Positions 1 to 62,124 of a stretch of 64,000 nt of DNA are shown one piece after another (position 1 is the stretch's first letter; every line of letters begins with the position of its first letter). Below the pieces are notes generated by a model, which was not told the DNA's origin, made no database searches, and saw nothing but the letters and a program-made list of their open reading frames with translations. The stretch is taken from IMG/VR virus record IMGVR_UViG_3300028833_000003; one strand, 5' to 3'. The position numbers and the translations under genes are program-made. Source of the stretch: a virus.

Positions 1-1299
1 TATTGTTGCCGCGCCATTAGCAGGAACAAAAGAACATAATTTAGTAAATAATTTACTGTAATGACCAGTTAAAACATCATAAAATTTTCTATTAGCCCAA
101 AATTTATATGATACTTCTGGTCCGCCGCAAATAGGTGTTATACGATATTCATTATAAATCTATTCTAAAGTACGTGTTTTTGCATATTTGGCTTTAAATT
201 GTAGCCAAGCCTAAATGATATTATCACGTACTTCATCACTTACTCCTTCTGTTGTGACCATAGCAAGCATATCTGGATAAGCTAAGTCTCTCGTTAATTT
301 TTTCCAATCAAACACTTTAGTATTTAATGATTCCCATTTAGAAGTTAAATTTGTAATAAAATTATTAATGCTAGCATACTAATGTGCAGCATTTTTAATT
401 GTATGTAATGTGCCATTTTCTAAATAGTTATAATCAGCATTATCATCTATATTCGTTGTATCAGAAAATTTTGCATATTCTTGTTGATAGTATGCGGATA
501 ATCTAGCATTATCTTCCTATAACCAAGCAATACATTGCTCGCGAGTGTTTTCTGTATAAGCCGGATCGGCTTCAATTGCACGTCCAACTTGCGCGACCAA
601 TATTTGTAATTCTGATAACGTATAATATGGTGCATGATTCTAACTCAAATTATTAACAGCATTAGTTAAAGCAGCATATTCGTGGTGTATGCAATCATAA
701 ATCGTATTCACATTATCAAAAGCGATAAAATTATTCATACGCTATTGAATAATAGCAATTTTTTCTTCACGCATAGTTTCGATTATACGAGTACATTCAT
801 ATGGAGTTATACCCCATACATATTCTTTATCTTGATTCTACTCATAACGATGCTATTTTTTTAATTCAATATCTTCTTCTGCGTTGCCTAAAGCCGCTAA
901 ATCAGCAATATAAACAGGAACACAACCAGTTAATAAGCTATATAAATCTTCAACCTCAAGCGCAGCAACCTAAACGAAATCATCAAAAGGCCATTTAAAA
1001 TTATACGCCGCACTGCTACCTGTCATTAAACGACTTACAATGCGTTTCTAATTGTCCCAATTATTCTATGGAACTAAAACTTGTACCTATTCGCCCGCGA
1101 AAAATGACTATTCTGAGTATGCTTCAAAACGAGTATTTTCATATTCACAAGTGTAAATATTTTTATCCTCTTCCGAACGCGAAATGATAGTACAAGGCGA
1201 ATAAGTTTTATCAAATTTTAAATCACTTAATGCTTTTTTAGTCAATAAATCAACTGCACTTAAAACGCCATTTGCAACACTATCATTAAAATTAGCCAT
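1..1299 (-). CDS. tail structural protein encoded directly downstream of the tape measure gene (possibly distal tail protein); C-terminus runs off the left edge; uses TAG as sense codon
   Basis: ATG 1299 behind AAGGAG; frame open to position 1 (433 codons) with 13 in-frame TAG and no TAA/TGA in AT-rich DNA; position after tape measure. Confidence 0.7.
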
Positions 1300-1341
1300 A
1301 TCTTCACACTCCTTTTACTCTATAACTCTATAACATAATGT

Positions 1342-1382: not shown

Positions 1383-4300
1383 TTATCTATAATTATTAAT
1401 ATATTGTGACGCACGATTATTAAGTTCATCAAACGCCGCAATAATTTCGTTTCTATCAGTTGCATTCGGGAACTCAGCGGAAATATGAACATTCTATTCT
1501 AGCCCGCCTAGACCAGAGAAAATGCTAGCACCATTGGCTGAAACTCCACTACTTGACATAGCGGCAGCCAAACCACCAATAAATCCTAACAAATTTTGAA
1601 CAGCAGATGTATCAATAGAATGTAACAGATCAATCGTATTTAGCAAATTAGGCGTGTCTGCCGCATTAAGCATAAGCTCTGGTTTATTTGGTGTGCCATC
1701 AACCCAAGCAGGTCCAGTATAATCAACCAAACCGCCAGAAGCATACCCACTTAATTTTGAATTATATCTCATTGCAGCAGCCTTTGCCGCTTCAATTTTT
1801 GATTGCCAATCACTTGAAACCTTTTTACTTTTAGTAGATGATACTGTTGTACCGTTAGAACTAGCAACCGTACCATCAGTATAACCAACCATATTATTTT
1901 GTACTGGTACTAAACGATATTGAATAAAACCAGTAGCATTAGGTGTTGCAATGTCTCCTTCGGTACCACCAATCTGCCATAATAATTCTAAATTTTTTGT
2001 ATTTGCTGCTTCAATAGTAGCAAAAATATCTGAAATAACTTGTTTTTGTCTATACCAAGCATCAGTCACTGCATCAACTTTAGCCGCTTCATCGCCCAAT
2101 TCCTCATTTAAAAGACTGACTTGCGATGCAGCTAATGATGTAGTAGAACCAATGATTTCATCAAAATTGGTCATGTCTGCTAACCCAGTACGATAAAGAG
2201 ATGTATCTAAAGCATCACTGAATTCTTTTAATTTAGGTAATAACCAATCAATCTATTCTGCTAAACTCATTGCCATACTATCTTGTAATTCAATAGCAGC
2301 TTGAATAGTAGGATTGATACCTTCTGTTGGGTCTTTAAAAGCACTATAATAAGCATCGCTATATGCATCCATACAAGCTTCATTATTAGTGGTTAAATTA
2401 GCATATGCTTCTTTCATTTGATCGACAAAATATTTATCGTCTTGTTGAGCCATTTCATGTAATTCACGTAATTTTGCTGCTTTTTCTTCTTCATTCAATA
2501 AATCATCAAGAGCAATAGCTTTCGCCTATTCCACATACCATTTGCGCTTTTCTAACATTTGTTCTTCTAATTCCCGCACTCTGTCTAATGATAATTCATT
2601 AATTTCAATTAATACATCATTATATTCCTGCGTTGCTTCATCAACTTTTTCTTGGTCTGCAGTATATTGATACATATAATTACCATTTTCATCTCTTGTT
2701 AATCGTACAGTATCTTTTGCGTTCTATGCATCACGTAACGCTGTCTGTTTTTCTAATAGTTCATACTATTTTTGCATCATATCAACATCATATTGAGTTA
2801 ATTGACCACTTTTAGCTTTTTGATTAATAACATTCTATAGCTCTTCATATTGATTCTTTAAAGCCTTATCCATAGTATCTGCCATCGCTTGTTCAATTTG
2901 TCTATTTAATTTATTAATATTATATAACTAATGAGCTGTATTTAAATATCTATCTTGTACTTCAATGTCACGATCATATTTACCTTGTAAGTAATCTAAT
3001 GTCGTTTCTCCCATCGCCAATGCTCTATCTAATTCAGTGCCCATTTCTTCAACATCGGCTTCCCAACGTTGTCTAGCTAAATCCGCCATACTTGTTAAAT
3101 TTTCATAATAAGTATTTTGTGTATCTTTTAAGCGAGCTAATAAACTATAATAATCTGCCTATTGCTGTGCGTCTAAATTTTCTAGACCATCAGCTTCAAT
3201 AATTTTTTGATCAAATAATTCTTTTTGAGCTAAAACAGTTTCATATACATCTTTATAAATATTTGCCAATGCCTAAGTTTGATTATATTGTTCTGTCAAA
3301 TTTGCTCTTGTTGTTGTAAATGTTTTATGAACTCCTATTAAATCACTAATATCTTTAATAGTCTATAAAGCAGTAATATTCTTATCTAATAAATCAGTAT
3401 TTCTTGATAATTCGTCATCGTATTTAGACCACATATCTTCAAATAATTCCTATATTTCTTGACCTTTATCAAAGATGTCTGACATATCATCATTTAAAGC
3501 TTCCATAATATCCTATGAATGTTCTGCCATAGTTGCACCATCAATTTCGCCTGCTTTAAATGCTTGCTATAATTCATTTAATTTAGTCATTTCTTCATTA
3601 AGTTTAATAAAACTCGCACCATCTAAATTTACTCCATCACTACCAAATAGTGCCTCTGCTATTAAACTTGCTCTTGTGCTAAGATTAGTTAATATATCTT
3701 CGGTACGATCAAGTTGCCCTTCTAATGCATTTAATTCTAAATCTGCTAATTCAATTTTCCATTCGTGCGCAGTTTCTACGGTTTCAGCAGTTTTTTCAGA
3801 AATTTCATGTTGCTATTCAAGAATTTTTTCTTGATATTCTTCTATTTGAGCTAATGAATCTTCATAATCTTCAATGACTTTCAACATACGTTGATAGGCA
3901 TCATCAGGTCCTTCCATCCCGCTTTCTGCTTCATCATCTTTATGTTCATTATACCAATCTATTAATTTTTCCTAAAGAGCTTCCCAATTTTTAATAGTTC
4001 CATCTTCATCAAAATCAAGAGTAATACCAAGCTATGCTGCTAAGCCTTCAACATTTGATCTATCTTTGCTAGCATATGCCGCAGCTTCATTTAATCGTTC
4101 TTGATAATTGTCCATTTGTTTATTTAATTTTTCAATTTCTTCACGCATCAATTTAACTTTAGTTACACCAAATGCCATTTCTTCTTTTTTAGCGACCTAG
4201 CCTAATTTGGAATCATATCGTTTAATTGTTTCATCAACTTCATGGTAGCGTTTAAGATCGGCTTTGGATTTACCTTTCTTCTTCTTTTTGCCTCCACCGC

Positions 4301-7300
4301 CGCCGCCTCCGCCGCCACCACCAGGTGCAGAAGGTGCTCCGGCGCCAGGTCTTGCTCCAGTAGTACCAAAATCTGGTACGGCAAGACTAGTTGTACCTGA
4401 ACCTTGTAATTGACCTTCAGCAGTAGCAGTCATAGAGCCGCCACCTGGCATAGTAACTGTCATTGTTGAAGATGCAGGTACATCAATTTCGTTTTCTCCT
4501 GTAACTGTCTTTAAACTAGGAGGAGGAGGAGCTTGTACAGTATATGTGATTGTGCCATCTTGATTTAATACTGCGGTTATAGCATCTGCATTTTGAATTA
4601 AGTATTCTACAGGTATCTATACAGCCTAGCCTGTTTGTTCGCTTAAAGTTGCACTTAACTAATCTGCTAAACCTTGCATATCAGTTCCCATCATTGCCGC
4701 AGCGCCTTGGGCATTTGTTGCTACATACTAAAAACCATCACCAACTTGCTAAACTGCAAGTCCCATATCATTTAATACTTCATTTGCTTCATCTAAGTTA
4801 TCAAACTAACTAACAAATTCTTCAGCAGTTTGTTGAGTTTTTTCTCCCCACTTTGAAGCTAGACCCATTGTATCCATTAACTATCGCATTTGTTTATTGG
4901 TTAAGTTTAAATCTTTTTGCAATTGTCGTAATGCTTTGCTATCTTCTTTTCCAAGTTTTTCACCAAATTTTAACCCGTTACCAATTTTGTTAAATTCTGC
5001 TAACTGTTCTGTACAATCTTCTATAGATTGACCTGTTTCTTGGAACATCTCATCTAATTGTTTAGTTAAAATTTTTGCTTCTAACTATTCCATTGCTTCA
5101 ACAGAACCATTAGCCCATTGTGAAATTAAATCTTTATTGTCTTTGATAAAATCCATGCCAACTTCTGCATCTTTAAAGAAATTATTAACTATATCTACTA
5201 AATCTTGATAAGCTGCCATTTGTTCTTTAATAGATTTTGTTTGATCATCAATAGTAGCTAAAGACCCATTTTCTTCTCTAGCTTTTTGTAATGCATCTAA
5301 TGCTTCTGTCGCTTTATTATATTCAACAGCTGCTTCAGACATTAATAACTTGTCATCAGCTTCTAAATCTTGCCATTCAAGCATTACTCCTTCATAAGCT
5401 GCAATACTTTCAACATAATTTTCCATTTCTTGTGCTTCAATACCAAGCTATTGCGCATAATTAGATAATAAATCTGTTAATGCTTGTACATCACCATGTA
5501 ATGCCGCAGTCACTTTGTCTCCTGCAAATGCTTCATTAGCTAAATCTGTACCCAATTCTACTTCATCAGTATTAAATAAAATTGGATGTTCTAATAGATA
5601 TTGATCTACAGCTTCTTGTTGTGCTTGCTGAATTGCAGCAGCTCTTTTATTCATATATGCAAGTTCACTTTTTGTAACTGCATTACCATTATCATCTAAA
5701 AGTAATAAATCAGGTTTATTCGGGTTACTTATTGGTTTAGGATTAGTTTTATCAAATTCTGCACCTGCTTGTCTTGCTGCATCTGCTTGTATTCTTGCGA
5801 TTTGGTCCATCTAGGCCTAATTTACTGCAGTATAACCCTTTTCCTAAAATTGCTTTAATTCCTCTGCGCTATTAGCGTAATCCTAGTTTTTAACAGTAAC
5901 TTTTCCAGTCTTTTGATCAATTTCAAAACTACTTGCAGTACCATCTTGTAACATTTTCATTGCTGCCATAATCTGTGCCGCTGCAGCAGCCATAGCGGCG
6001 GCTAACTGCATGGTTGCACTTTCCAATTGCACTAAACCGATAGAAGCAACTGTGGCATCTTCACCAACAATTCCCATGTCCTATAAAGTTTTTAGTACCG
6101 CTGCCTAATCTGCTTCTGACATACCTGCGAGAGTGCCTTTTTCAATCATTTGCTATTGAGCAGTCTATAATAATGTCATTTTTTGCTATTGACTATCTAT
6201 ATATTGCTCACCTTCTTGTCGAGCTTTGTCAGCCATATTAGTTCGTTTGGTTTCTACTTCTGTAAATGCTGCCGCTAAGATTTCAGCCAATTCAGAATCA
6301 GAATGTACATACATTGAGTCTTTTATCAAAGATAATACCGCCTCGAAATCCTCTTGTTTAAGTGTATAACCTTGCGCAGCTTCACTAACATGATAATTAC
6401 CAGTCTAATCTGCAAAAACAAGACCATGACGTTCTAATCCTGCCAAAATTGCTATACTATTTGCGTCTCCGGCTTTAGCTTTATCATTATATTCCCCAAT
6501 TAATTTAGGATTTAATGATTTTCCAATAACATCACGCAATTCACCGGCTAAATATTTATCTACATATTTTCTAACATTTTCATTATATTGATCTTTTGTA
6601 GTATCTAAATATTCACCATTTTCACTATTTAAAAATCTTTGTCGCCCTGATTTATTATAAGTATCAAAATCAAATGGTCTATAATCAACTCTTGCATCAG
6701 GATTGTTTATATGTTCTTTAATTTCTTGTAATGTTTTACCTGCTTCTAATAATGTTTGCACATATGCTGCTAATTCATCAGGACTACCGAACATTGATTC
6801 TAAGATACTTTTTCCTTCTGCTAATCCTGCTCTCATATCAGCAATTGCTTGGAATGTTTGCTCCCATAATTCTAGTACTGCTTGTGCAGTAGCTTGTTCC
6901 TAAGCATATATCGCCTGTAAACCACTTGCCCATACATCTTTAATAGTATTCCATGCTTCTTCAACGGCAAATTCAATTTCCGTTCCGCTATGATTTAAAG
7001 CTTGTTGTACGGCAGCTATAAATTCTTCGTTATGATTATTAATTGCATCTGCTAAATCTGTTGCTCCAACTGTAGCAATTGCAGAATTAACTGCAGCGTC
7101 TATATAAGATTTTTGAGCATCAGACAATTTATCACTTTGAGCATATTCTTTATTACGATAATAATCTTTTTCACGTTCAGCAATTGCTTTTTGCATTTCT
7201 TCATTGAAGTTCTCATTCATTTTTACCAAAGCATCAGCCCGAGCTTGTGCAATATCTTTTGGACGTTTAGAATCTTTTTCTGCCTACGCTTTTAATGCTT

Positions 7301-10300
7301 TTAAAGCTGATTGATATTCATGTTCAAATTCTGCTGTCCATTCTCTTCCAGGCATTTCTTGTGAAACCAATTGTTTTGCTTTTTGTTGCAATTTTTGTTC
7401 TTCATCTTTCCATTTAGCTTCTGCATCATCTTGAACTTTTTGTTCATAAGCCTTCCAAATTTCCTAATCAGTTAATTTATCTTTATTATCTGGATTGGCA
7501 ATATAATTATCTCTAAAAGCTGCGTAATCATATAATGTACTATACTTTTGATGATCCGCATCAGTACCACCTAACAAGCTATCTAAAACATCTGTAATAG
7601 ATGTATCTTCAGAAATTTTTCCAATAGCATTTTGAATTTCATCTAAAATACTTCGTGCAATTTTATCTCCTAAACCATCAACATTTGGCTCCCAACCAGC
7701 AATAGACTATGACAAACCAACTTGTAGACCTTGGATTAAGAATGGAGCCAAAGCCATAGTTAGTTTTGATGGTGATGCAATACCAAGAGCATGAGCAAAT
7801 GCTGCAATAATTTCATTACCAATTGGCGCAAAATACGCTGCCCAATCTACATCTGTATTTTGTAATCCAACAATTAAGCCATCCATTAAATGCATAGCTA
7901 ATGACGCCGTTGCGGAATCAGAAGATTGAGATGCTTCATCTAATGCTCTAAAATAATTATTTAAAACATCAGGTGCCAAATCTTTAAAATCATCTGGAGA
8001 CATGGCTAAAATTTTATTATACATAAGTTGAGCCTTATATTTTTGTTCATTTGACCAAGTATTATGGCTACCTTCAGCATTAAATTCGAACATAGCACTT
8101 TGTATATCTTGTATACTCTATAAATTATTATGTCGCTATCTAAAGTTTGTCACATGCTATTTTTCATTATTAGCAATAAATGGTATATCAATTCCACCTA
8201 AATAAGAATACATTTTATCAAGATCTTCTGCGCCCTTTTGCTATAAATTGCTTTTATCCATCAAAGCTTTAACTTTAACAAAATATTCTTGTCCTTGTAA
8301 CTGTTGTTGAATAGTGTTATTTCCAAGACTCGCATCAGCTTTAACATGATATTCATTTGGTTTATCTTCTGCTCCATCAATTGCTCCCTATAATTCTGCA
8401 GCTAAAGTTACTTCTGTACCATTTGCTAATCTTACTTTAATTTCTTTGCCTTTTCCATCTGCTCCTTGTAATATTTGAGAAATTTGCGATTCAATAATAC
8501 CAACATCTGTTTGAATTTTTAGTTTTCGTGGTTGACCATTTTCATCTGTTTCCATTTCCCATGCGCTTATTTTAGATGCTAAATTAAATTCTTCGCCTTT
8601 ATCATCAACGCAATTAATTTTAATATTATGACCAGTTGCATCAGTTTCATAACTTTTAATCGTTGCCGCAAAATCTTCGTCATCTTTTCGAATTAAAATA
8701 GTTTTAGTGCCTGGAAGCATTAAAGCTGCGACCGTTACCGTAAAACCTAATGTATTACCTGCATTAATTGCAATTTTCTTTTCCTCTGGAACACTATCTA
8801 ATAAAGTAGTATAAGTTACTTCAAAAGTGCCATTTTCGCCATCAAACATAATAGTTTTATGGTCTGTAGTAATTGCTGTATTATATTTTGCAGTATAAGT
8901 ACCAAATTCACCTTGGAAAGTAATAGTTTTATCTTCTCCTGCAATTGCTGTATCATATGTTGCAGTATAGGTACCAAATTCACCTTGGAAAGTAATAGTT
9001 TTATTTTCTGTAGCGGTTGCTTCTTTAACTGCAAAAGTATAAGTGCCACCATCACCTAAAAACGTAATCGTTTTATTCTCATTCATTATAGCTTCTTTTA
9101 CTGTATCTGTATAAGTTCCAAATTCGCCCTAAAATATAATTGTTTTATTGTCATCTAAAGTTGCAGATGTATAAGCCGCCTAATAAGTTCCATCTTTAGC
9201 ATAAAAAACAATATTCTTTTCTCCATCAATCTGTACAGCTTCTAATGAAGAAGTATATTCACTACCTGTTTCACCAACAAATGTAATTATTTTTGAACCA
9301 GGATGACTTTCAATAGCAGCAATTGTATCACTGTATTCTTTATCATCAACAGAAAAAGTTACTTGTCCATCAGGATGTAAATTAAAATTCTCAACTGCCT
9401 AAACTACTTCTTTACCATCAACGGTATAATAAACTTGACCATCTTGATAAAGCCAAGTCTAAATTTCATCTTCATTTTCCATCTCGGCTTCAACTTCAAT
9501 TACACTATGGTCAACTGGAGTTGTATCTAATTCTGTTACTAATCCAACATATTCTTGTTGCCGTTTTTCTAAAGTACTTAATTGCATTAATGCTGCTTCT
9601 GTTGCGGCTACCATGCCAGCCTTAATTTGCTCTTTATCTCCATCAGCATTTTGAATATCTTCAATAATTTCTTTAACTCTTTCAGCTGCAACACCAGCTC
9701 TAATTAAAGATTGTTCTAATTCACCAATTGAAGAAAAAGATAAATTATCTAATGAAGTTAAATTTGATTGAATGAACTAAATCGCACTTTTAGCCGCGTT
9801 AATTTTTTCATCGTCCTAACTAGTTTGACTATCAACTCGAGACTATATTTGTTCCATACGCTAGTCATTTAATGCACGCTCTTGAGCTTCGATTTTTCTC
9901 TACTAAATTTGAACCTGAGTATCATCATATCCTTTTTCATCGCGCATGTTCTATAATTCTTCTAGCTTTTGTTTCATTTGTTCCAATCTATATGTTTCTC
10001 GTTCTAGATCAGACATTCCTAGCCATTCCTCAAATGAGGGAGTATCAGCCTTATTTAAGCCCAATAATAATTGATTCATTGCTAATTCAGTATCTTTCCA
10101 TTTTGTCGGGTCTAATTCTGCACCAGATAACCATTCTAACTATTGCGATTTACCAGACGCAGTTTCAATAAATTTAGTTGCAGTTTGTAACGCCGTAGTA
10201 ATATTAGTATATTCTGCTTCTTCATCACTTAAACTTGTTAATAATCCTCTAAAATCACTATTGTTATTTACTGTACCTTTATAAGATATACCCCAATCAT

Positions 10301-13300
10301 TCATATATGTACGTAAAATATCACTTGCAGAACCTGCAGTAGCATATTTGTCACCAAACATAGCAAGCATAGTATTACGTGTATCTTCGTTGTTTAATAA
10401 TTTTCCATTTTCATCTATGTTTTCTGATAAAAAACGCTAAAAAGTACGCTAATGCTCCCATTGCTATTTAGCCTAATCAACATCTTCTACACCCATTCGT
10501 TCTTGCATAAAAGCATTCTATGAATCTGTAATAATAGTATTTAAATCTACCATTCCATCTTCATATTGTTGCCACCAATTATCATAACCTGTGCTTATTT
10601 GCTCCATTAAAGTCGCCATTTGTGCGGCTTTTTCAGAAGAAGACATTTTATTCCATTCTTGAGTATTAAAAATTTCTCCTAATCCTAATAAATCACTTAC
10701 TATTGGTAGCTATGCCGCAAAACTATCTATATCAAATTCACCAGAATATCTATTACCCCATTGAGCCAATAAGCCTGTTGCAGTTTGTGCTTTTGCTTGT
10801 TGCTATAATAATTGAGGAACTCGTTTGTCCATTAAATCACCATTATTATCTAAAAATGGTGCTATATTAGCCATATAAGACCAATCTTTATCAGTAAAAC
10901 CCCACTGCTCTAATTTTTTCTACGCTTCTTCTTTTGTCATTTTTTTATTACGAGTTGTCATTGCAGTTACAGCAGATTCTTTATTAGCAACCGTTGCATC
11001 TGCCGCAGCTATATCACTTTCTGATACACCGACTAATCCTCTGGCATAAGTAGTTACTAATTGACTAGCTTGTTTTTTAGCTGCTCGAGTAATAGCATCA
11101 TTTTTATTACTATCTATGCCCCAGTCTGCTAATAAACCTTCAACTAAACTCTCCTATACATCAGAACTCCATCCTTCAACATTTTGTTGTTTTAGCCAAT
11201 CCTAGCCTTTTAATTCTCTCATACTCTTAATAGCATTAAGATATGGAGAAATCATTTCAGTGATCATGTAATCAATATCTTCAAATGATTGATCATGTAC
11301 TAAAGCTTCTAACTATGATTTCATTCCAGGGTCTTCAATAGTTTTTGCTGCTTCTTTAATTGCTTGTAGCTAATTATAATAATGTAACAATGAATCTAAA
11401 TCAGATTCAATAACTAAGTCATCGGCAGTTCGTGCCATCCCTGTTCCACCCGCGCGCGCACTACCGCCTAAGAATGATTGAATCAAATTATTTTCTTGAT
11501 CGCCTGTTGCATTACCACTAAGCCAATAATCATATTTTCGACTACCAGCATAATCAATATTAATACCATATTGATTAGCTAACATATCTCTTATATTTGC
11601 ATTCTATAAACTTTTTAATAAACCAGATTGTTTCATATTAGTATTAAATGAACTTAATATGTCATTATAAACAACTCCGGTTTTATTCCCTTCATTATTA
11701 TCTCTATATTTGTCTCCCATATTTTCTTTTGCTATTTTAGTAACCTAATTTTCTAAACCATGTTCTGCGCGTCTAACATCAGATTCTGCAGTTTCAATTT
11801 GTTGTTCACGTGCAGCCTCAATAGATTCTTGAATAGCTGCAGTTAATCCTTGATAATTACCAGTAAGTGCCATAACTGCAGCACCCTAAATGCCTAAACT
11901 AGATGCGATATCAGCTAAAGCACTACTATATTCTTGAACAGATAATGCACCTTCTGCAAACTATTTGTTTAATGAGTCAAAAGCATTACTATTAGTCATT
12001 AATTCTTGATTTGATTGTTGATGTTCTTCTAAAATTTTATTTGTAGTTTCTGCCATTTTAACCATTTCTTGTTCACGTTTTTCTTGCTAATCTTTCATAT
12101 ACGTAAATACACCAGCAATTGCCATACCAGCCGCTTGAATGCCTGCCATCAATGGTCCTTGTGTTGCAAATGTATTAAGTAATGAACCACCTGCACTAAC
12201 AATAGAAGTTACACCTGCTAATGTATCACCACTTTCAAATGACTTCATAATACCTTGCATAGAAGTAAAACCTTGAACTGCAGCCATGGCTCCTTCTGCA
12301 ACTGTTGCCAAACCCTTAGACAATTTTTGAGCTGCAGCTTCACGAGCATTCAATGCTTGCTCTTCTTCATCTTCCATATCAAAGCCTGCAGTAATCTCTT
12401 CTTGGCCTACCTAACGACCATATTCCTAAGCTCTATGAGCAGAATCTTCACCAACAATGCTACGCATTTCCTGATAAGCTTCATCTAAGTCATCATCAAT
12501 TTGATCACGTAAATGCTCTGCAATAACTCTTCCACGATCAGCTTTAGTAGCTTGATTTTGTTCATTAAAACCAGCACTTTCAAGCCAATCATTCATTTCA
12601 TTTTCGTCTTGCGGTAAAAAATCACGTACTGCTTGAGCCATTGGATTATTCTCATCCATCATAACAGACTCAAAACGCTCTGCAGCCGCTGTACTATCTG
12701 TGTCCTCATTAAAAATTTGATCTATCTATTGATTTACTGCACCACGTAAAGCATTTCCTCTAGCTTCTTCTTGTACTCTATTACCTAATCCACGTATCGC
12801 TGTATTTTGTACATTCTTATCATCTGATTTAAAATCTGCTACCATGTCATCAAGATCACTACCACTATAACCCTGATCAGCATAATAATTTAAAGCATTA
12901 ATATAAGCATCATCACGTAATTTATCAGCAGTACCTGTACCTTCTAATTCAACTAAAGAACCAATTGATAATTCTCTACGAGCTTCATCTGTAATATTGG
13001 CTAAATTAGTTTCATGACCTGCCATGGTTTGCTAACGCTAATTTAAATAATCAATATGCTATTGTAAACGCGCAGCTTCTTGTCCACTCATATGCCCTTG
13101 TCGTAATAATAATTCTTGTTTAGCTATCGCACTTTCACTTCTTGCGTCTGCACTTAATAAACGCATTGTATTTGCAGTATTTGCACTTGTATCTGGTGTT
13201 AATTCACTTTCTCGTCTATCTAAAGCGCTATTATATTCCATATCTGCCGATCTACGTAAAGTTGTTAGATTATCAAATAAATTTCGCTATTGAGTGCCTT

Positions 13301-15041
13301 GTGCAAATTTTTGAGCACCATACTAAGAAATTGCTTGCATCCTTCCGCCATAATTATTTGAATTATTTTGCATATAAGCATTAAATTTTCTATAAGTAGG
13401 AATACCACCAATTGGATGCCCTTCTGAGCCTTTTGCTGCTTTCATGTTGCCCCATGCAGTCCGCAACGTACCACCTTTGCCAAAGAAATTTCCAAATGCC
13501 ATGCTAATACCTGTTAATTTATCTAACATCTATGGTTTAAATGCAGTCATCATCATCTAAGAAATTTTTGCTAATATACCAGGGATACCTCCAAGACCAT
13601 TAACTAAACCTCTAACTGCAGATAACGCTGTTGCCAATGCATTATTAAATCCAACAAGGAATTTATCATTAATTAAATCACCGAAAATAGCTTCTTTACT
13701 TGCTTGTACTCTTTGTTTAGATGCTTTAACAGAATCTTCATAAATTTTCTGCATTTTTTCTAAGCTGCCAGCTGAATTTTGAGCATTTTGCAAATCTTTT
13801 TGATACGTATCCCAGTTTTCAAATAATGCCATTAATTGCGTATATTGACGTTTACCAGCAACAACCTGCGCGATAGCAGTTTTTTGCGCACTGCCCATGG
13901 TCTACCATTTATTACCAAGATCAGTAATAACATCGCCCATATCACGCATATTACCAGTAGCATCTAAAACCTATACACCAATAGAATTTAATGAGCTTGA
14001 AACTTTACCTAAATTAACACCGTCTTCTAATGTTTCACCTAATTTTAAGTCACCCATACGTGCTAAAATAGTTTTAAAAGATGTACCAATTGATTCAGCA
14101 CTTTCACGAGTAACAGAAGATACAGTTGCAACAATAGAAGACATTTGTTCCATACCGACACCAACAGTACTAGCAGTCGCGGCAACTTTCTATAAAGCTG
14201 TTGCAATTTCTTCCATGCTAGTAGCAGTAGTAGAACCTAATTTTGCCATTACATCTACATAACCTTCAAGCTAATCACCGCCTGCTTTATAAGAATTCCA
14301 AACGGCGGTTAGCATTTCTGACATTTCCGCAGCATTAGCTTTGAATGCAGTATTTGCAGCCTTTAAAGTAATTTGTGCTTTCTTTTGTACATCTCTATCA
14401 TTATCACCCTATTGATAATAAATTAATGCTGCATCAGCATATGCTTTTGTTGATGTACTTAAACTTTTTGCCATTACATTTGCTTCTTTTGCAAAATTGC
14501 TCATATCAGAAATAGATTTGCCAGTAACAACACGAATATTATTTAATGAAGTATTTAAATTTTCAATATAGCTAACTGCTCCACTCATAGCAGACTATAA
14601 GCCATGAACCATTTGACTAGCTGCTTGCCATTTCACAGTATTCATTAAAGTTGTGCCAAACTATGCAATAAGACCAGTCGCTTTTTGCGCGGGAATAGTT
14701 GCCTAAGTTAGAACAGAAGACAACTATGAAATTGCCTATTGTCCAGTTGTACCGGCGCGCTAGAAACTGGCAATTAACGTTTGAACATTTGTATTAGCAC
14801 TCGCCAAGCTATTACTTAATGCACTAAAATTAATTTGCCCAGTATTAACATTAACTGCCTATTGTAATGCCTACTATAATTTTGCTGCTTGCTACGCGGC
14901 ATCTGCCATATTTGTATCAATTTTTAAATTTAATCTACTGTTTTGCTGCAATCTTTGTAATGAAGAACTTAATTGTTCAACCTACCGCTATGCAGCACTG
15001 GCATCAGCCTAAATATTAATTTTATACTATACACCAGCCAC
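1383..15041 (-). CDS. giant tail tape measure protein, 4,552 aa, read with TAG as sense codon
   Basis: 19 ORF-track fragments (1494..2174 through 13971..14153) share one frame. I walked every gap codon by codon and found only TAG, never TAA/TGA. GTG 15041 lies 8 nt after AAAGGAG; an in-frame TAA sits upstream at 15063; the first non-TAG stop is TAA 1383. N-terminal part (SIGTSFKTILARMGDLKLGE, AQVVAGKRQYTQLMALFENW) looks like a TP901-type tape measure core. Sits after the major tail protein and chaperone. Confidence 0.85.
8800..9400 (-). repeat. tandem 72-nt (24-aa) beta-type repeat array inside the tape measure gene, at least 8 units
   Basis: Units K-T-I-T-F-x-G-E-F-G-T-Y-T recur with exact 72-nt phase (x codons at 9131, 9059, 8987, 8915, 8843; diverged units further upstream at 9203, 9275, 9347). 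Confidence 0.8.
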
Positions 15042-15115: not shown

Positions 15116-15640
15116 TTAACCTATTTTATCTAAAATTTCTTTAACCGTAGTTAATTTTTCTGGGTCTTCAATTTTTTCAATTGTTTTATCAATATCATCT
15201 TTTGCAATCGCATAATCTGCATTAATCATATTAATCATACCAGCTAATGAATTATTATAAGAAACAATATTATTCGCACATTTCTAAGCAGCGTCCCATA
15301 ATAATTCATGTTCTCTTGTGGGAATTGCTTTAATTACACTATCATAAACATGATTAAGTTCTAATGCATCAAATACTTTACTAATATTTTCTAATTGCTT
15401 ATCAGTAATATTAATATTAGTATAATAACGAATTAATAAAACTTTAAACCAAATTTCTAATCGCATTGGGTTATAAGCACCAGTAGAATCAATAGTATAT
15501 GATAATAATTCACTAATCAACTGTGCTTTATCATCTACTGATAAATACTAAATTACATTAATTTCTGTATCTCCTATTTTTATAATCACAGGTTCAACTG
15601 ATTTAATGGGTGTTACTTTTGAAAAAGCAACTTTCGCCAT
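15116..15640 (-). CDS. tail assembly chaperone-like protein (174 aa), contains TAG sense codons
   Basis: ATG 15640 behind AAGGAG; in-frame TAG at 15548 and 15284; ends TAA 15116; assignment by position immediately upstream of tape measure. Confidence 0.65.
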
Positions 15641-15702
15641 AATAACATCTCCTTTATCTCAATACTTATTTATAATATACCATATTTTTTTTATTTTGTC
15701 AA

Positions 15703-16944
15703 TTATGAATCTGCGATAGACGCTAAAGTAGATTTTGAAATTTCAGTTATCCAATCTCCTTTTTGTTTATGTATCATTTCATTAACTTGAGTATAGATTT
15801 TGCTAATAATTTCTGCTGTACTAATAACATAAATGTTTGCACTACCAGGATCATTATATACTAAATAATTAGCACCTAAATCACCAATACCATCTTTCTT
15901 TAATTCATTTCTAATAATTTCGTCTACATAAGTTTGACCTCGACCTGTTAATTCATAAATAACACGTAACTACTATAAAGCTAATCGTACATCTTCACGA
16001 TGAGTATTACGAGCATAATAAAAAATACTAATTGAAACACCATAAGGAAATCGAGTATTAAGCAGATCTAAATAAACACGTTTACTTTTTGTCTAACCAA
16101 AATGAACTGAACGTACTCTTGACTAAATGGCATTTGTAATACCTGTCGCGGCGTCTTTAATATATGATAAACTATTATAGTTTTTTGCAGTAAAATAAGC
16201 TTTATGCAATAATTTAGCAATATGCATTAATTTAGATCCGGCGGTTGCAGTAATTGTTAATTCAACTGCATGTCCATTCACATCGACTTTACCATTAACA
16301 GTAGTTGTTACAAAATCATCGGCAGATGTTCGTTCATCAAACAGGCGTTTAATTTTATCTGCTTCCTCTTGTACTGCAGCATTAGCAAGATCACTTATTG
16401 CTCCATCAATCATACTACGCAATGGAGTATGCGCACCTTTCGTACTTACTGAATGCCCCATAACATTTACTTTTGCGGCACCAAAAATAACATCATTTAA
16501 ATTGGCATTTTTTGCTCCTCCAAACTACTAAGTCGCCATACTGATAGCCGCCAATTCGCCTTCTAAAACATCACCTTGCGTCCAACCTTTAGACTTCAAA
16601 CCAGTGCGAGTAAAAAAACCTCTGCCACTAGCGCCAATAACAGAACCCGCTTCTTGTAAAATCTAACTTAAAGCTTGTTGCTAAATACCACTTTTTAATG
16701 ATATATTCTCAAAACCCTTATTACCTTTATTAGATAAATTTTTTAAATCACGAAAAAAATCTTGCAATTCTCTTGCTTCAGCAGCACTACCTGCTCCTTC
16801 AACTGCTCCGTGACTATTACCAAGACCATTCATAATATTATTATACTCGCTCATTAATTCATCACGCATCGCAGTTAATGCTTGATAAGGATCTAATCCT
16901 TCATATGCTTTATATCGTTCACCTAAGTGTAATAATCTTGGCAT
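15703..16944 (-). CDS. hypothetical tail-associated structural protein (413 aa), contains TAG sense codons
   Basis: ATG 16944; ORF-track fragments 16681..16944 and 16123..16461 are in one frame; gaps contain only TAG; ends TAA 15703. Confidence 0.7.
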
Positions 16945-16962
16945 TTATGTCACCCGCTTAAT

Positions 16963-16997
16963 AAAAAAAATGGGGACGAGCTTTTTTGCTCGTCCCC
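16963..16997 (-). terminator. intrinsic terminator after major tail protein gene
   Basis: Stem GGGGACGAGC/GCTCGTCCCC (16972-16997), T6 loop, followed on minus strand by U8 (A8 16963-16970 on plus). Confidence 0.7.
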
Positions 16998-17016
16998 ATT
17001 TGTATTATATCAATAA

Positions 17017-18099
17017 TTATTCACCAAAACGCTTTGGAGGTTCCTTACCAGAATCTTCATAAATGTCGCCTGGGAATTTAGTATCACCCTCAACTGCGCC
17101 ACGAGTTGAACCATCATAAAGTGCAGTATCTTCAACAATCTGAAGAGCAGCAATTACTTTCTTGGTCTTATCAAACTTAGTATAGTCTGGGAAAGCATCC
17201 ATTGTGAAAGTAAAGGTAGAAGGATCACCAGTAGGTGCCATTGTGAAGGTAAAGTTAGACTGAACCTTGCAGTTAGGAATGATAAATTCAGCAGGATAGT
17301 CTTCACCAGTTGCTTCATCACGGAACAAAGTAGAAGCTTCAAGATAATAAGAACCACCGAACTTACCAGCTTCAATATCAATCTGCTTTACATACTGAGT
17401 GCTCTTTACATAATAGTCAATATAAAGAACAGAACCTGGATCATCGCCCATGCCATTAACGTAGTCATATACTTCCTGTGGATTCTTAGCATCCTTATAA
17501 GCATCTACGTTTGCTTGGAACTCAGTGCCAATAGGAGCATGAGCATCCATGATCTTACCAGCGACCAATAATTCATTATGAGCAGCATTATAAGCAGCAG
17601 CCCAATGAGCAAAGATTTCTTCAACGTTCATTTCCTTAGCAATATCATCACGTTGAATTTCCATAGGAATACGATTGGTATTAATAGAACCATCAGCATT
17701 CTTCAACATAATATACATGCTACCACCCTTGGCTGGCTCATGAGCAAGAGTAATCTTACCTGCTTTAATCTGAACCTGCTCAGTAGTATGTACATAAATA
17801 GGATGATCTTCATCAGCATCCATGAAACCAGCACCAGAAAGAATTGAGAAGCTTTCTGGACTAATCAAAGCATCTTCCATTGTAAATGTTACAGTACGGT
17901 CGCCTTCCCAAGCTACCAAGCGAGGATTACCTTTACCGCCCTGAGCATAAACAGTTGTGCTCTGGCCTTCCAAAGAAGAAGTCTTCAATGTTTCAAAATA
18001 TAACACAGGCATATCCTTGTCAAGATACAACTTACCGAAGAAACCTGCTGCCTTACGACGAAGTACAACATCGCAAATTTCGCGTACGCCAAATCTCAT
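17017..18099 (-). CDS. major tail (tube) protein, 360 aa, TAG-free
   Basis: ATG 18099 8 nt after AGGAGG (the ORF-track start 18138 is upstream of the RBS); GC-richer codon usage; flanked by a strong terminator; upstream of chaperone and tape measure; product by position and beta-rich sequence. Confidence 0.7.
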   Translation of the reverse strand: MRFGVREICDVVLRRKAAGFFGKLYLDKDMPVLYFETLKTSSLEGQSTTVYAQGGKGNPRLVAWEGDRTVTFTMEDALISPESFSILSGAGFMDADEDHPIYVHTTEQVQIKAGKITLAHEPAKGGSMYIMLKNADGSINTNRIPMEIQRDDIAKEMNVEEIFAHWAAAYNAAHNELLVAGKIMDAHAPIGTEFQANVDAYKDAKNPQEVYDYVNGMGDDPGSVLYIDYYVKSTQYVKQIDIEAGKFGGSYYLEASTLFRDEATGEDYPAEFIIPNCKVQSNFTFTMAPTGDPSTFTFTMDAFPDYTKFDKTKKVIAALQIVEDTALYDGSTRGAVEGDTKFPGDIYEDSGKEPPKRFGE

Positions 18100-18116
18100 A
18101 TGCGTTTCCTCCTTAA

Positions 18117-18875
18117 TTAATGTAAACTTTTCATCCAATCGTCTGGTTTACTGTCGGGTTTTCCGCCAGCCAAACGTGATCTTATATCTAAATCCCACCC
18201 GACATATAAGCCGTATCTCTCAATCAAATCATAGAGCTGATAGACCGTAAGATTAAGGCAATCATCCAGACTCATGGATTCCAGAGCAATGGTGAGAATA
18301 GAAACATATCTAGATAAAACACCATCATTACCACCCGAGCCTCTACGCCGAGCAGCTTCACTACGACCCTTCATTAATTTCGCCGCAATTGCAGCAGCTT
18401 TATTACCTTTTGGATTATAATTTGAGTTCTAACCACCAGTCGCATTATTTAATCCACACACTTCTGTTAGAATTGCTTGCACAGTATCAAAATTATTTTC
18501 ATCAAGAGTAAAAGAATGTTTTGTCGTAGCGTTATTAAAAAAAACTCCCATAGGTAAAAACTATGCAGTATATCCTGGGAAAAACAACATAAACAGTTGT
18601 TCGATGGTATTTTTCCGCTTCCCCGAATCCTAAATATTCGGGTTAGCTACTAATGTCATAAATATCTAAAAATTATTAAGGGCGGCTAAACTAGAAGCGC
18701 CCTATCCTGTCTAAGATGCTAAAAGCACTTTTCGATTAAAACACACTAACTATAAGGCTAAAAAATATTCTTCTTCACCAATTAATGCAATTTCCGCGAT
18801 TTTAGGCTAGTGGATTGTAGTCTATAACTCAACTACTGGGATATTAGTCCCAGCCATTAAAGCTAATGAATTCAT
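18117..18875 (-). CDS. hypothetical neck/tail-completion protein (252 aa), contains TAG sense codons
   Basis: ATG 18875 overlaps the TGA of the preceding gene (ATGA coupling); alternative ATG 18857; frame has only TAG interruptions; ends TAA 18117. Confidence 0.65.
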
Positions 18876-19405
18876 AATAATGGGTTCCGCTAATCTTCTT
18901 CTCCGTGAATAGCTTCATAAGTTAAACATAAACCCATCAACTAATCATTAAGTAAAAGATTGCGCCCAGTTAAGAATTGAGTTTCCCCAATTCCAGTTAA
19001 TTTTTTCTTATTGAAAAGACTATCAATTTCACCAGCAATCTTATAAGGACGTAACTAAAAATTGCCTAAATTCCAATGATCAGGATGACAAAGAATGTCA
19101 AATTCAATAATACAATCTCGATACACTGGATTCTTTTTATTTGGCTAAAAATTATCCATTGAAATTAATACGTAATTAGGACACTCAGTAGAAACTTCTA
19201 GCTAAGGAACTATACGTATCTACTTATGAATCATAGAATATTTTTGTTCTTGTGTTAAATCATTTGCTTTTAAACAATCTTTTTCAGTATAATAAAGTAA
19301 TTTCATTAAACGTTGATCTTCCATCATTTTTTGAATAATCAACGCCAAATCTTTATCGACCGCCAAGAAACTTGATTTAGGAAAATAATCTTGCCCAACA
19401 ATCAT
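18872..19405 (-). CDS. hypothetical head-tail joining/neck protein (177 aa), contains TAG sense codons
   Basis: ATG 19405 behind AAGGAGGAG; fragment 19220..19405 continues in frame through TAGs to TGA 18872. Confidence 0.7.
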
Positions 19406-19422
19406 ATTAACTCCTCCTTTAA

Positions 19423-20388
19423 TTAAAACAATGATTCAACAACAATAGTTTTATGTAAATCTTCAATTAGCATATCATTATGAAATACAATTTCAAATTC
19501 ACCACTAACCATTGGCAACCATTTTACAATTAAACCATTATCTTGTTCATCTACTCGCCATTCAACTACATCATCAATATCTTTATTCTAAGATGTTGAT
19601 ACTACTGACCAGTCACCGCGAATACGACGATTTACATTATATTTAACTTCCTATCTTGGCTTAATAAATACTTCACCATCAATAGAAACATCAAATATAT
19701 TCTGCTTAGGAGGATTAGGATCGGTAGGCTCAATTATATATTCATCTCCATGACATTCATAATCTTCTTCTGCGACTATTTCTAAAATACCGGGTGTACT
19801 AATACTGTCAGGAGCCTGAACTTTCCAATATCTACCTTCAAATTCAAAGCGTTGATAACGTTCTAGCGCACGTATTGTTTCCTCAGTGCGTTTTACATAT
19901 ATGTCAAGAGTTAAATTAGGTACATCAGCAGCAATACCGTGCTTTTGAATTGTATTAATTTTAGTTTCAACAGGCCCGCGCACAGCCATCCATAAACCAA
20001 ATTTTTCTTTAGTTTCTGGATCAGTAACTTCAACCCACTAGGCTCTGCGGCAATTTCCTCTAAAATATGCCAATTCAGTTAATTCTTGTTTGAGTATTAG
20101 CCAATGAATACCAGACTCTTTTGGCCATTCAAAACTATCTCCTGGCTTAAAATCATATCGCCAATCAACAGAGATAATCTTTTCATCATAGTCAAATTTT
20201 ACTTTATCAGGATTAATTAATGCTAATACCCATTCACTGTCTTCTTCATCTTTTTTAATCCAAGCATGTTGATAAGAATAAAGAAGCGCACGATGGAATG
20301 AACGTCTTTTATCTCGAACCATGCGGTCATGTTGGCGGTCATTAACCGCGGCACGTGCGCGAGCGCGCAAATTATCTAGTGCGTCCAT
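19423..20388 (-). CDS. hypothetical structural protein (321 aa), contains TAG sense codons
   Basis: Fragments 20038..20388 and 19651..19989 are in the same frame, joined by TAG; ends TAA 19423. Confidence 0.7.
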
Positions 20389-20644
20389 CTAACTAATTCG
20401 CTAAATCAGTTAATAGTGAAATTGCACTAAAAACTGTTTTGCGATATATCATAAAATCGGCTTCGTCAAGCAGACCATACAATTCAGTAACAAATACTAA
20501 AAAGTCTAATTCACCGCCAAATATTTTGTCTAACCCACGAAGTTCAAGTAATACAGTTTTAATCTATCCTTGCCAATCCTCTTGATTTTCACGCATCGGC
20601 AATAATTTCCAAATCTGATTGACCAGACGACGCAAATCGGTCAC
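20372..20644 (-). CDS. small hypothetical protein (90 aa), one TAG
   Basis: GTG 20644 after AGGTG; fills the gap between flanking genes; overlaps the next start by 17 nt; weak support. Confidence 0.4.
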
Positions 20645-20669
20645 TACAACACCTGGTTCAAATTTGAAC

Positions 20670-21251
20670 TCAGTTGTTTCTGATTGCTTCCCACTTGCCA
20701 TAATCAATACCATTATCGCTATCTGCGTCGCCAGATCCTTCATGAATAATCTTAACAGTACCAGCTAATGCAGCTTCTTCTTGCTTTGGAATAGCACTAT
20801 CATTAAGCATATGCCAATTAGACATAACATGTCCAGTTTCTGGTACAATTTTACGCCGCTTATATAAACGTTGTGCGTGAATATTCTCGCGCCACACCTC
20901 AGTCTTTAAATTTAAAAGCTTCGCAAGATGATTAGCTTGCGAAGTAAATTTAAAATCTGAACCGCTATATTTCATGCGTGTATTTTCAATAGAAGAAATC
21001 TGTCGGTCCAACCATACGACTTTCATTAAAATAGCGAAAATATTAATTTCTTCTCTGGTTAAATCAACATTGTATTGCTCTTGATCTGCGTCATAATCAT
21101 ATAGAGCAAATCTTGGAAATTCAAAGTAGGATATGGCATCTAATAGAATCTATTTACAATCACGAATAGTATCTTCCTCAGTCAATTCCAAATACTAATC
21201 ATCTGTAATTTTACCAAGGAAGGCATTATAAATAGTTTCAAATGATGTCAT
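20670..21251 (-). CDS. head-tail connector/adaptor-like protein (193 aa), contains TAG sense codons
   Basis: ATG 21251 behind GGGGGAG; fragment 20670..21026 extends upstream through two TAGs; N-terminus MTSFETIYNAFLGKITDD resembles gp6-type adaptor N-termini (recall only); ends TGA 20670. Confidence 0.6.
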
Positions 21252-21252
21252 A

Positions 21253-21852
21253 TTACTCCCCCTTTGCCTCTTCTTTCTGCACTACTTTATACTGAGGAGT
21301 AGTGCGGCGACCACTAGTTTTAGTTTCGGCCTATACTCTACGGGTAGGTGCAGCCTTTACTTCCATACCACTATCAGTAGTATTTGCTTCTTCAGCCTGC
21401 GCAGCTTCAACTTCTGCCTTATGCTGCAAAGCAAGCGTTATATCAAAACCAGTCTTTGCTTTAAGAGCTTCGCGCTTACGCGCATCATTGCAAGGCAATT
21501 CATAAGAATATTTCTTGATTAAATCTATTACACCATCAGGCGCAAAATCAAGGCAATCAAGGAATGCTTCAACGCTACCATTTTGAATTAAATCAATAAC
21601 GCCTTTTTCATCCAAATAATATTCAGGTTCAATCCGAATAGGCATTTCCTTCACTACTTCTGTATCTTCAATAAATAGACTATCACGAAGCATTACAGTA
21701 CCACCTGGAACAAAACTTAAAGCATCCAACTCTTCACGAGTAAGATTTTTTACTTCGCCAGGCTACCATTCGCGGCGAATGCCCATATCTGGAATCGTAT
21801 AAATAAGCATTCTACTACTGCGATTACGCACTTTAATTTTATTGTCTGCCAT
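21253..21852 (-). CDS. hypothetical head-associated protein (199 aa), contains TAG sense codons
   Basis: ATG 21852 behind AAGGAG; in-frame TAG at 21763 and 21331; ends TAA 21253 inside the RBS of the next gene. Confidence 0.65.
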
Positions 21853-26730: not shown

Positions 26731-27087
26731 TTAGTATCCAGCTTTTTTCATAATATAATCATAACTTAACAAATGTTCTTCTGTATAAGGAATTTCTATT
26801 AATTTATATCCATTCAAAGCACAAAAACGTCGTTTTAAATTATCATTATACTACTGTTGGAAAAATCCTTTTTTACCACCATATTTGGCAGAAGGCTAAT
26901 AATGCTATTTTCCTTGATACTCTATTAAAAAATCTATTTCTCCATCATCATCAAATACACAAAAATCAAATTTTAATGGTCTTCCACTTGTACTTACTAA
27001 TCCTGCAAATTGCTGCTCCATAGTAAAATTAGCATCAGCTGCTTCTAGGATTTCGCGGATAGTAATTTCTCCTCTACTTGCATTCAT
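26731..27087 (-). CDS. small PD-(D/E)XK-type endonuclease-like protein (118 aa), contains TAG sense codons
   Basis: ATG 27087; three in-frame TAG; read as Gln gives FDFCVFDDDGEIDFLIEYQGKQHYQPSAKYGG...LIEIPY, a pattern I recall from small endonuclease-like proteins; ends TAA 26731. Confidence 0.55.
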
Positions 27088-30009: not shown

Positions 30010-30011
30010 AA

Positions 30012-61458: not shown

Positions 61459-61531
61459 GCCGGTATAGCTCAGTAGGTAGAGCGTTTCCTTGGTAAGGAA
61501 AAGGTCCCCAGTTCAAATCTGGGTACCGGCT
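61459..61531 (+). tRNA. tRNA-Thr (anticodon GGT), CCA encoded (to 61534)
   Basis: Cloverleaf by hand: GCCGGTA/TACCGGC acceptor, GCTC/GAGC D stem, TTTCC-TTGGTAA-GGAAA, CCCAG-TTCAAAT-CTGGG. Confidence 0.9.
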
Positions 61532-61534
61532 CCA

Positions 61535-61885: not shown

Positions 61886-61888
61886 TAT

Positions 61889-61961
61889 ACCCCTATAGCT
61901 CAACTGGCAGAGCATCTGACTCTTAATCAGAGGGTTCAGGGTTCAAGTCCCTGTGGGGGTA
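61889..61961 (+). tRNA. tRNA-Lys (anticodon CTT), CCA encoded
   Basis: ACCCCTA/TGGGGGT acceptor, TCTGA-CTCTTAA-TCAGA, CAGGG-TTCAAGT-CCCTG. Confidence 0.9.
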
Positions 61962-62117: not shown

Positions 62118-62124
62118 CCATTAT

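Follow-up and report, generated by a model that had tools for sequence, protein, structure and literature searches.

In-frame TAG as a glutamine codon in the late genes of a large SPbeta-like phage, and a candidate suppressor tRNA in a close relative

The 64,000-nt stretch of DNA analysed here (IMG/VR virus record IMGVR_UViG_3300028833_000003, hereafter the window) carries numerous in-frame TAG codons in its late genes, and the comparison of these genes with their homologues strongly supports the equivalence of TAG and glutamine in this sequence. In the reading which we consider very probable, the window comes from a ~169-kb SPbeta-like siphovirus with genetic code 15, in which UAG would be decoded as glutamine by a phage suppressor transfer RNA (tRNA) and only UAA and UGA would terminate translation. 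The same meaning of TAG had been proposed in an earlier note on this DNA, and it is borne out here by homologue columns, calibration and bootstrap, on grounds which are stronger than those that the note itself had offered.

The window is the reverse complement of positions 6534-70533 of the ENA contig ERZ27257202:k141_292341 (168,974 bp), and the same sequence was assembled independently in the ENA, JGI and Logan data. With the standard code, its longest open reading frame (ORF) is 606 aa long; the length rises to 4559 aa if TAG is read through and to 758 aa if TAA is, and stays at 606 aa if TGA is. Once TAG is read through, bases 1-31,100 (minus strand) form an unbroken late operon, with 180 TAG within ~10,260 late codons and no in-frame TAA or TGA in the open late frames. 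All 49 public gene calls examined are terminated by TAA or TGA, which is consistent with this picture without being independent of it, since the public caller presupposed TAG read-through (the public gene calls on the ENA contig already translate across TAG). The public protein database likewise already writes Q at the TAG positions, and was excluded as independent evidence.

Residues aligned with TAG in related phages

The late proteins of the window, with TAG written as X, were aligned by local tblastn to the structural regions of five GenBank phage records which have no in-frame stop in the aligned genes (L003-L007). Opposite 82 TAG sites, glutamine is the commonest residue (39 of 187 residues, that is, 21% against a background of 4%, a 5.25-fold excess), followed by E (21), K (19) and S (18), and homology runs on past every TAG. 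An empirical likelihood, built from the substitution spectra of the same alignments, also places glutamine first, with E behind by 53.5 nats, K by 54, S by 82, L by 196, W by 207 and Y by 220. Columns in which every aligned record has glutamine are found in the large terminase (TerL residue 383, 5/5), the portal (residue 289, 4/4), a small homing-endonuclease-like protein (residues 70 and 88, 3/3 each) and a sigma-like factor (residue 156, 2/2).

From the 217 relatives that a scan of IMG/VR with TerL yielded, we retained the best 80 (L020-L099; TerL identity 70-78%, contigs up to ~200 kb). Among these best 80 of 217 loci, 21 are without any in-frame stop (standard code) and 55 have 5-48 in-frame TAG; the residue counts which follow come from 17 distinct standard-code relatives and from a recoded set of 45 distinct relatives. 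In the standard-code relatives, glutamine accounts for 263 of the 624 residues opposite the TAG codons of the window (42%; CAA 189 and CAG 74) and is the majority residue at 20 of 50 TAG sites, the others being mainly E (67), K (62), N (41) and A (37). None of the residues that the earlier note had named as possible contradictions of its assignment, namely Trp (0), Tyr (6), Ser (26) and Leu (24), dominates the TAG columns, and the alignment that it had suggested as a check (TerL, portal and small endonuclease against standard-code homologues) has glutamine in the lead opposite TAG. The codons of the window itself provide a calibration: the glutamine share is 45% in its CAA columns and 53% in its CAG columns, against 42% in its TAG columns, and TAG therefore behaves like a glutamine codon, whereas the GAA columns of the window (58% Glu and ~3% CAA) are unlike the TAG columns. 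When each site is counted only once, glutamine is ahead of E by 40.8 nats and of S by 49.5 nats, and it comes first in 2000 of 2000 site bootstraps.

At the invariant-glutamine columns, the codons of the 45 recoded relatives are only TAG, CAA or CAG. TerL residue 383 (TAG at 27695-27697; glutamine in 17/17 standard-code relatives) has TAG in 29 of them and CAA or CAG in 16. In the endonuclease-like protein the corresponding figures are 21 and 22 at residue 70 (26905-26907), and 22 and 20 at residue 88 (26851-26853); in the portal they are 4 and 31 at residue 289 (25851-25853), and in the sigma-like protein 13 and 28 at residue 156 (30630-30632), with no other codon at any of these five positions. 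The TAG codons at 18807-18809 and 18750-18752, in the head-completion and tail block, also occupy invariant-glutamine columns. The reverse test took the 372 sites at which relatives have an in-frame stop; 99 of them are Q or TAG in the window, where ~4% would be expected. Separately, we observed 1-4 in-frame TGA or TAA in the alignments of a few of the best 80 loci.

The small endonuclease-like gene (26731..27087) reads ...IEYQGK-TAG-HY-TAG-PSAKYGG, exactly as had been pointed out, and the endonuclease signature which the earlier note had put forward is confirmed, the standard-code relatives having EYQGVQHY, EVNGEQHY and EFDGEQHF at this place. The first TAG of this motif takes the place of the invariant Q of E-[YVF]-x-G-x-Q-H-[YF] (glutamine in 17/17 standard-code relatives), and the second (26896-26898) falls in an E/Q column. 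As a candidate small PD-(D/E)xK/homing-endonuclease-like protein, it matches PHROG 9084 ('homing endonuclease', 4e-24) and PHROG 559 ('HNH endonuclease', 2e-23); its score against Pfam DUF2726 (16.6 bits) is below the cut-off of 24.7, and a PDB sequence search with it gave chance matches only and no relative.

The tape measure repeat and codon usage

Part of the earlier argument for glutamine had been drawn from a tandem repeat in the tape measure gene, with five 72-nt (24-aa) units (8841..9131, minus strand), in which the variable slot x of K-T-I-T-F-x-G was read as TAG (9129-9131), TTA (9057-9059), CAA (8985-8987), CAA (8913-8915) and GAT (8841-8843). These codons, read in the minus-strand frame that ends at 15062, are as described, and the 72-nt period was recovered by Tandem Repeats Finder; with two more units upstream, which have Tyr (TAT 9201-9203) and Val in the slot, the full series becomes V, Y, TAG, L, Q, Q, D, and glutamine fills the slot in only 2 of the 6 units besides the TAG unit. 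A second in-frame TAG of the array (GTY-TAG, 9180..9182, minus strand) stands opposite Thr four times and opposite Glu once, which, by the logic applied to the slot, would argue for Thr and is a counter-example to the repeat argument. The resemblance of the TAG unit to the glutamine units holds within the 13-residue core but not over the whole 72-nt unit, where the Leu unit is the nearest (48/72 identities, vs 43 and 46 for the glutamine units). With a hypervariable slot and a second TAG opposite Thr, the repeat does no better than chance as evidence for glutamine. A search of IMG/VR with the repeat segment of the tape measure found no relatives, so that TAG 9129-9131 is without a homologue column.

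The codon counts reported for the 3' part of the tail gene that runs off the window (1..1314, minus strand) are right (13 TAG, 9 CAA and 0 CAG), but the suggestion that TAG has replaced CAG is not supported in this form, since the CAG share of the glutamine codons in standard-code relatives is 28% opposite TAG, matching the CAA columns (29%) and not the CAG columns (57%). Within the TAG-bearing genes, codons that end in G have a share of 0.11 in Gln, 0.18 in Lys, 0.15 in Glu and 0.18 in Leu (TTG); as AAG, GAG and TTG are avoided too, the shortage of CAG reflects a general preference for A-ending codons and is not specific to glutamine. The four TAG-free late genes (tube, YonB-type capsid and two others) have a CAG share of 0.78 and an AAG share of 0.75. 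The late genes can be described as written in two codon dialects, CAG/AAG in the TAG-free capsid, scaffold-like and tube genes and CAA/AAA in the TAG-bearing ones, and the C34 tRNAs of the phage (Lys CUU, Thr CGU, Gln CUG and Glu CUC; genes at 61889-61964, 62045-62120, 62202-62275 and 63414-63489) read exactly the G-ending codons.

A putative suppressor tRNA in a close relative

The tRNA array of the phage (>30 genes) begins in the window, where its first 8 genes lie on the plus strand (61459..63571, including the tRNA-Gln(CUG) gene at 62202-62275), and it runs past the window end; the contig of the window itself ends inside a tRNA-Gly(GCC) gene. Through the protein adjoining this contig end we reached the ENA contig ERZ12289770 NODE_558 (L105), which has ~96% nucleotide identity to the window's contig and is syntenic with it up to the contig end. 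In L105 the tRNA array goes on, and a 93-nt tRNA(CUA) gene is found at 8779-8871, 2.1 kb beyond the contig-end point, a position which would correspond to ~8.9 kb past window base 64000. The Rfam tRNA model gives this gene 55.8 bits, with the CUA hairpin as the anticodon arm and 20 extra nt in the variable region, which is 22 nt long; positions 11 and 24 form a U11-A24 pair. From this ~96%-identical relative, we infer that a suppressor tRNA(CUA) is probably present in the window's own phage as well.

Under the identity rules of GlnRS and GatCAB, a weak or mismatched 1-72 pair, G73 and G10 are hallmarks of tRNA-Gln; bacterial tRNA-Ser has G1-C72 and C11-G24, and tRNA-Leu and tRNA-Tyr have A73. 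The 17 related suppressors compared all have G73 and G10, and in none of them is the 1-72 pair a strong one (it is U-A, A·C, A-U, U·U or G·U, that is, weak or mismatched); these features are Gln-like. Overall sequence similarity was discarded as a basis for the assignment, with 70-72% identity to several isotypes, and the assignment rests on the identity positions. In E. coli, the amber suppressor of the supE type is a tRNA-Gln with a CUA anticodon and has the ordinary class I form, at 75 nt. The phage suppressor shares with it the weak 1-72 pair, G73 and the CUA anticodon, and, unlike supE, has an added 20-nt arm which resembles a second anticodon stem-loop with CUG or UUG.

Other routes from the contig end were also followed. 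A scan of JGI data for the exact suppressor gave 7 contigs, of which the two that match the window's contig are only ~85% identical to it and were rejected as other phages, and a JGI scan for the contig-end junction gave no match. A 76-mer from the window end had no exact counterpart in IMG/VR, so that the contig itself is absent from the collection searched. As anchors, a 445-aa protein near the tRNA array had no relatives, and PhoH led only to 60%-identical phages with arrays extending past the DNA examined.

Several features in and around the tRNA arrays are recorded here for their own sake. Directly downstream of the suppressor in L105, positions 8890-8997 weakly match a Y-RNA-like model (YrlA; 33 bits, which is under the gathering score), and after another 1.4 kb comes a gene for a peptidyl-tRNA hydrolase (PTH2; 10287-10721). 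In the related phage L147, a group I intron (468-659; Rfam, 50.5 bits) splits the long-arm suppressor gene after CUCU of the anticodon loop, with a similar arrangement in the related phages L145, L150 and L156; ARAGORN calls nothing on the split gene, and self-splicing of the intron would give the code switch a further step of maturation. At 19860-19940 of L001, ~5.9 kb past the window end, the 3' half of a tRNA (T-arm and acceptor strand) is followed by a 5' half (acceptor strand and D-arm), with perfectly complementary acceptor strands and no ARAGORN or Rfam call, and this is either a permuted tRNA or the remnant of a tandem pair. Between tRNA-Met and tRNA-Glu(UUC), from 63572-64000 on to L001 14452, there are ~950 nt of G+C-rich DNA with no gene call, including the T-arm-like CCGGGTTCGACTCCCGG at 63651-63667; neither an Rfam match at E<=1 nor a matching 5' acceptor strand was found in this stretch. 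An Rfam match to 'cow-rumen-4 RNA' (73 bits) in the related phage contig L145 (7110-7174) points to a rumen origin for part of the phage group.

A second anticodon-like arm

The long-arm suppressors are 88-95 nt long, and their 20-nt extra arm consists of a short stem and a 7-nt loop. This loop reads CU[C/U]UGAA in 17 of 20 distinct IMG/VR suppressors and is laid out like an anticodon loop for CUG or UUG, the two glutamine anticodons. One pair of the stem is CG in 13 sequences, GC in 3, UA in 3 and AU in 1, with none unpaired, and a second varies between UA (15) and CG (4); these compensatory changes support the stem-loop fold. A rival fold, with 5 bp and a 3-nt loop, fits most sequences but is broken in four variants. 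The suppressor set had been gathered with a pattern that fixes the anticodon arm, which entails a sampling bias; in a scan keyed to the extra arm, with the anticodon arm not fixed, every long-arm match had a CUCUAAA anticodon loop. The arm-keyed scan also matched ordinary phage tRNA-Gln(CUG) genes, in which the same 15 nt (GCCUCUGAAGCAGGU) form the real anticodon arm. The same extra CUCUGAA arm is present in an 88-nt suppressor (62445-62532) of the phage phAss-1 (OQ749652); as a point of difference, phAss-1 carries a normal suppressor of 72 nt beside this long form. The extra arm goes unmentioned in the phAss-1 paper (PMC10607447), and no description of it was found in the literature searched.

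The extra arm may conceivably be a decoy glutamine anticodon, which would preserve glutamine identity while CUA faces the ribosome, a proposal that we put forward tentatively and regard as rather unlikely. Such a decoy would be read by GlnRS, by a non-discriminating GluRS together with GatCAB, or by a modification enzyme, that is, by machinery which normally depends on U35 and G36. It weighs against the proposal that a class II extra arm is not, by its geometry, obviously able to reach the anticodon-binding domain of a synthetase.

Alternative readings of TAG

Some of the results weigh against glutamine insertion by a phage suppressor. No tRNA(CUA) was found by ARAGORN, Rfam or a CUA-hairpin scan in the 64-kb window and the 6.5 kb to the contig end, with ~98 kb of the 169-kb contig outside this search, so that the candidate suppressor, with Gln-like acceptor features and an unusual arm, has been located in the ~96%-identical relative and not in this DNA. 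The long extra arm of this suppressor is a feature of Ser, Leu and Tyr tRNAs, and its charging with glutamine is a prediction. With TAG as glutamine, this residue would also make up 7.7% of the tape measure, which is high.

That TAG encodes another residue, either Ser, as the long extra arm might indicate, or Glu, through a non-discriminating GluRS with no transamidation, appears very improbable to us. The 22-nt variable region of the suppressor is indeed like that of tRNA-Ser, E, K and S are the next commonest residues opposite TAG, and many Bacillota form Gln-tRNA via Glu-tRNA; nevertheless, in the standard-code relatives Ser (26/624) and Glu (67/624) stand well behind Gln (263/624), the GAA columns of the window do not look like its TAG columns, the per-site log-likelihood relative to Q is -40.8 for E and -49.5 for S, with Q winning every bootstrap, and Ser and Glu codons are absent from the invariant-glutamine columns in all the recoded relatives. 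The weak 1-72 pair and U11-A24 of the suppressor are also not the G1-C72 and C11-G24 of bacterial tRNA-Ser. More improbable still, to the point of being nearly negligible, is the view that the TAG codons are genuine stops, reflecting pseudogene fragments, assembly or sequencing errors, or rare read-through. It would account for the splitting of TAG genes by standard-code callers (the JGI calls in L101 are fragments) and for the division in PHROGs of this TerL between two families, one for its N half and one for its C half, yet it is opposed by the density of TAG in late frames devoid of in-frame TAA and TGA, by the identical sequence obtained in the independent ENA, JGI and Logan assemblies, by the 55 of the best 80 related loci which share the pattern, with TAG at conserved glutamine columns, and by homology that is unbroken across every TAG. 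The two families in question, PHROG 15503 (TerL residues 4-230) and PHROG 24618 (residues 350-565), are both labelled 'unknown function' and seem to be artefacts that arose when the genes of TAG-recoded phages were called with the standard code.

TAG is spread over most late genes (TerL, portal, tape measure, tail, endonuclease and sigma-like) and a few others. It is missing from most opposite-strand genes and from the genes for the YonB-type capsid, scaffold-like and tube proteins, whose expression is presumably the highest. A phage amber suppressor tRNA(CUA) with glutamine identity, whose gene would lie just beyond the assembled contig end if the relative is a guide, would decode TAG; going by the literature only, it would compete with host release factor 1 (RF1), and the TAG-bearing genes would be completed only once the suppressor has been made, giving the recoding a regulatory role. 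A refinement of this reading, which does not contradict it, is that the meaning of TAG may be dual over time, a stop early on, with host RF1 alone, and glutamine once the suppressor accumulates, in line with the timing or safety switch proposed for late genes by Borges et al. (bioRxiv 10.1101/2021.08.26.457843). We consider this quite possible for the present phage, while leaning slightly against it. TAG is concentrated in the late genes, with only 2 of the 19 genes of the opposite-strand block (50-61 kb) carrying it, the capsid, scaffold-like and tube genes are without it, and the group I intron in the suppressor gene of some relatives would be an extra maturation step; yet PhoH and other genes within the tRNA array carry TAG too, so that the early/late split is not clean, and the TAG-free capsid gene is itself late, which fits the avoidance of a translation-efficiency cost equally well.

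Genes of the window

The Pfam matches on the public gene calls (YonB, YonD_N, YonG_N, YomW, YomV, YomU_Tube and YomO, together with PF10145 on the 4508-aa tape measure) indicate an SPbeta-type siphovirus module, and the PHROGs matches in the late region are to portal, virion structural protein, sigma-like factor and homing-endonuclease-like protein. The isolated phages whose TerL is nearest to that of the window, namely Geobacillus virus E3 (47.5%), Enterococcus phage EF5 (47%), Bacillus phages and Lactococcus phage 949, are all phages of Bacillota; a megablast search of 50,697 phage records with 9.2 kb of the late module gave no match. The window is part of a large gut or rumen phage, most likely with a Bacillota (Firmicutes) host.

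All the late genes are on the minus strand. The tape measure gene (1383..15041) is open for 4559 codons, contains 103 in-frame TAG and ends with TAA; the public call, with the Pfam PF10145 match, has 4508 aa from ATG 14909, and an alternative start is the GTG at 15041, with AAAGGAG just before it. At higher coordinates lie the head-completion and tail genes (15116..21852; YomW, YomV and YomO-like), all with TAG except the tube gene (17017-18099), and then three genes with no TAG, namely the YonB-family gene (21919-22974), here taken as coding for the major capsid protein (MCP), a further late gene (22995-23744) and a YonD_N-like gene (23766-25103). The portal gene (25116..26675, 519 aa) has 4 TAG, and the small homing-endonuclease-like gene (118 aa), located between TerL and portal, has the three TAG already discussed (26905-26907, 26896-26898 and 26851-26853). 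TerL (27092..28828, 578 aa) has 5 TAG, and the two genes upstream of it (28840..31082) are YonG_N-like (389 aa, 10 TAG) and sigma-factor-like (356 aa, 6 TAG). Outside the late region, a 555-aa ORF (53151-54818, minus strand) is antisense to a called gene of 600 aa (53184-54995, plus strand) and overlaps it nearly in full; it is most likely a by-product of the codon composition of the sense strand.

Relation to known systems and significance

The recoding of TAG to glutamine in phages of standard-code hosts is already established. Phages with genetic code 15 (TAG to Gln) were reportedly described by Ivanova in 2014. Terminase alignments with TAG-to-Gln and suppressor tRNAs were presented for phages of standard-code hosts by Borges et al. 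(bioRxiv 10.1101/2021.08.26.457843), and TAG = Gln has been validated by metaproteomics in crAss-like phages (Peters et al. 2022, PMC9523058). With the code 15 crAss-like and other gut phages, the window has in common in-frame TAG in structural and packaging genes, TAG opposite glutamine in the terminase, predicted hosts with the standard code, close relatives with different codes and, probably, a phage-encoded tRNA(CUA). In contrast to the crAss-like podoviruses of Bacteroidota, it carries an SPbeta-type siphovirus module (Pfam YonB, YonD, YonG, YomU, YomV and YomW), and its capsid, scaffold-like and tube genes are TAG-free.

The window is a fairly distant member of the lineage of phAss-1 (OQ749652, proposed Phassvirus), whose published annotation uses code 15 and includes tRNA-Sup-CTA genes (Babkin et al. 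2023, PMC10607447). Each is a siphovirus of >130 kb whose tape measure is giant and whose tRNA set is large, with TAG present in the TerL, portal and tape measure genes, both are related to the Enterococcus phages EF1/EF5, and the gene order is the same, with local tblastn identities to OQ749652 of 42% for TerL, 41% for the portal, 50% for the MCP and 42-47% for the tube. The likeness is at the protein level and about family level only, with no genus-level (Phassvirus) nucleotide match by megablast, and the two differ in size (a 169-kb contig and a tape measure of 4508-4552 aa for the window phage, 136 kb and 3149 aa for phAss-1). The Agate clade that Borges et al. describe consists of Firmicutes-infecting phages of ~154 +/- 27 kb, among which TAG-recoded, TGA-recoded or standard-code members share more than 80% average nucleotide identity. 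By description it is similar in its genome size, its animal-gut or rumen relatives and the presence of standard-code and recoded members in one family, whereas the Agate lineage detailed by these authors is TGA-recoded and the window phage is TAG-recoded.

The part of these results that could be new is the second glutamine-type anticodon arm of the suppressor. If the decoy proposal were true, a tRNA with one anticodon for the ribosome and a glutamine-type loop at its side would be a new answer to the identity problem of amber suppressors, and the arm would be of interest to engineers of orthogonal tRNAs. For the phage itself, the standard code shreds the terminase, the portal and the 4500-residue tape measure into fragments, and code 15 makes these genes whole. 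For the family, in which standard-code and TAG-recoded members coexist at 70-78% TerL identity, the relatives amount to a natural experiment on code change: TAG and CAA/CAG are swapped at the same invariant glutamine columns, and the 21 standard-code and 55 recoded loci (among the best 80 of 217) form a series for studies of how such a code is gained or lost.

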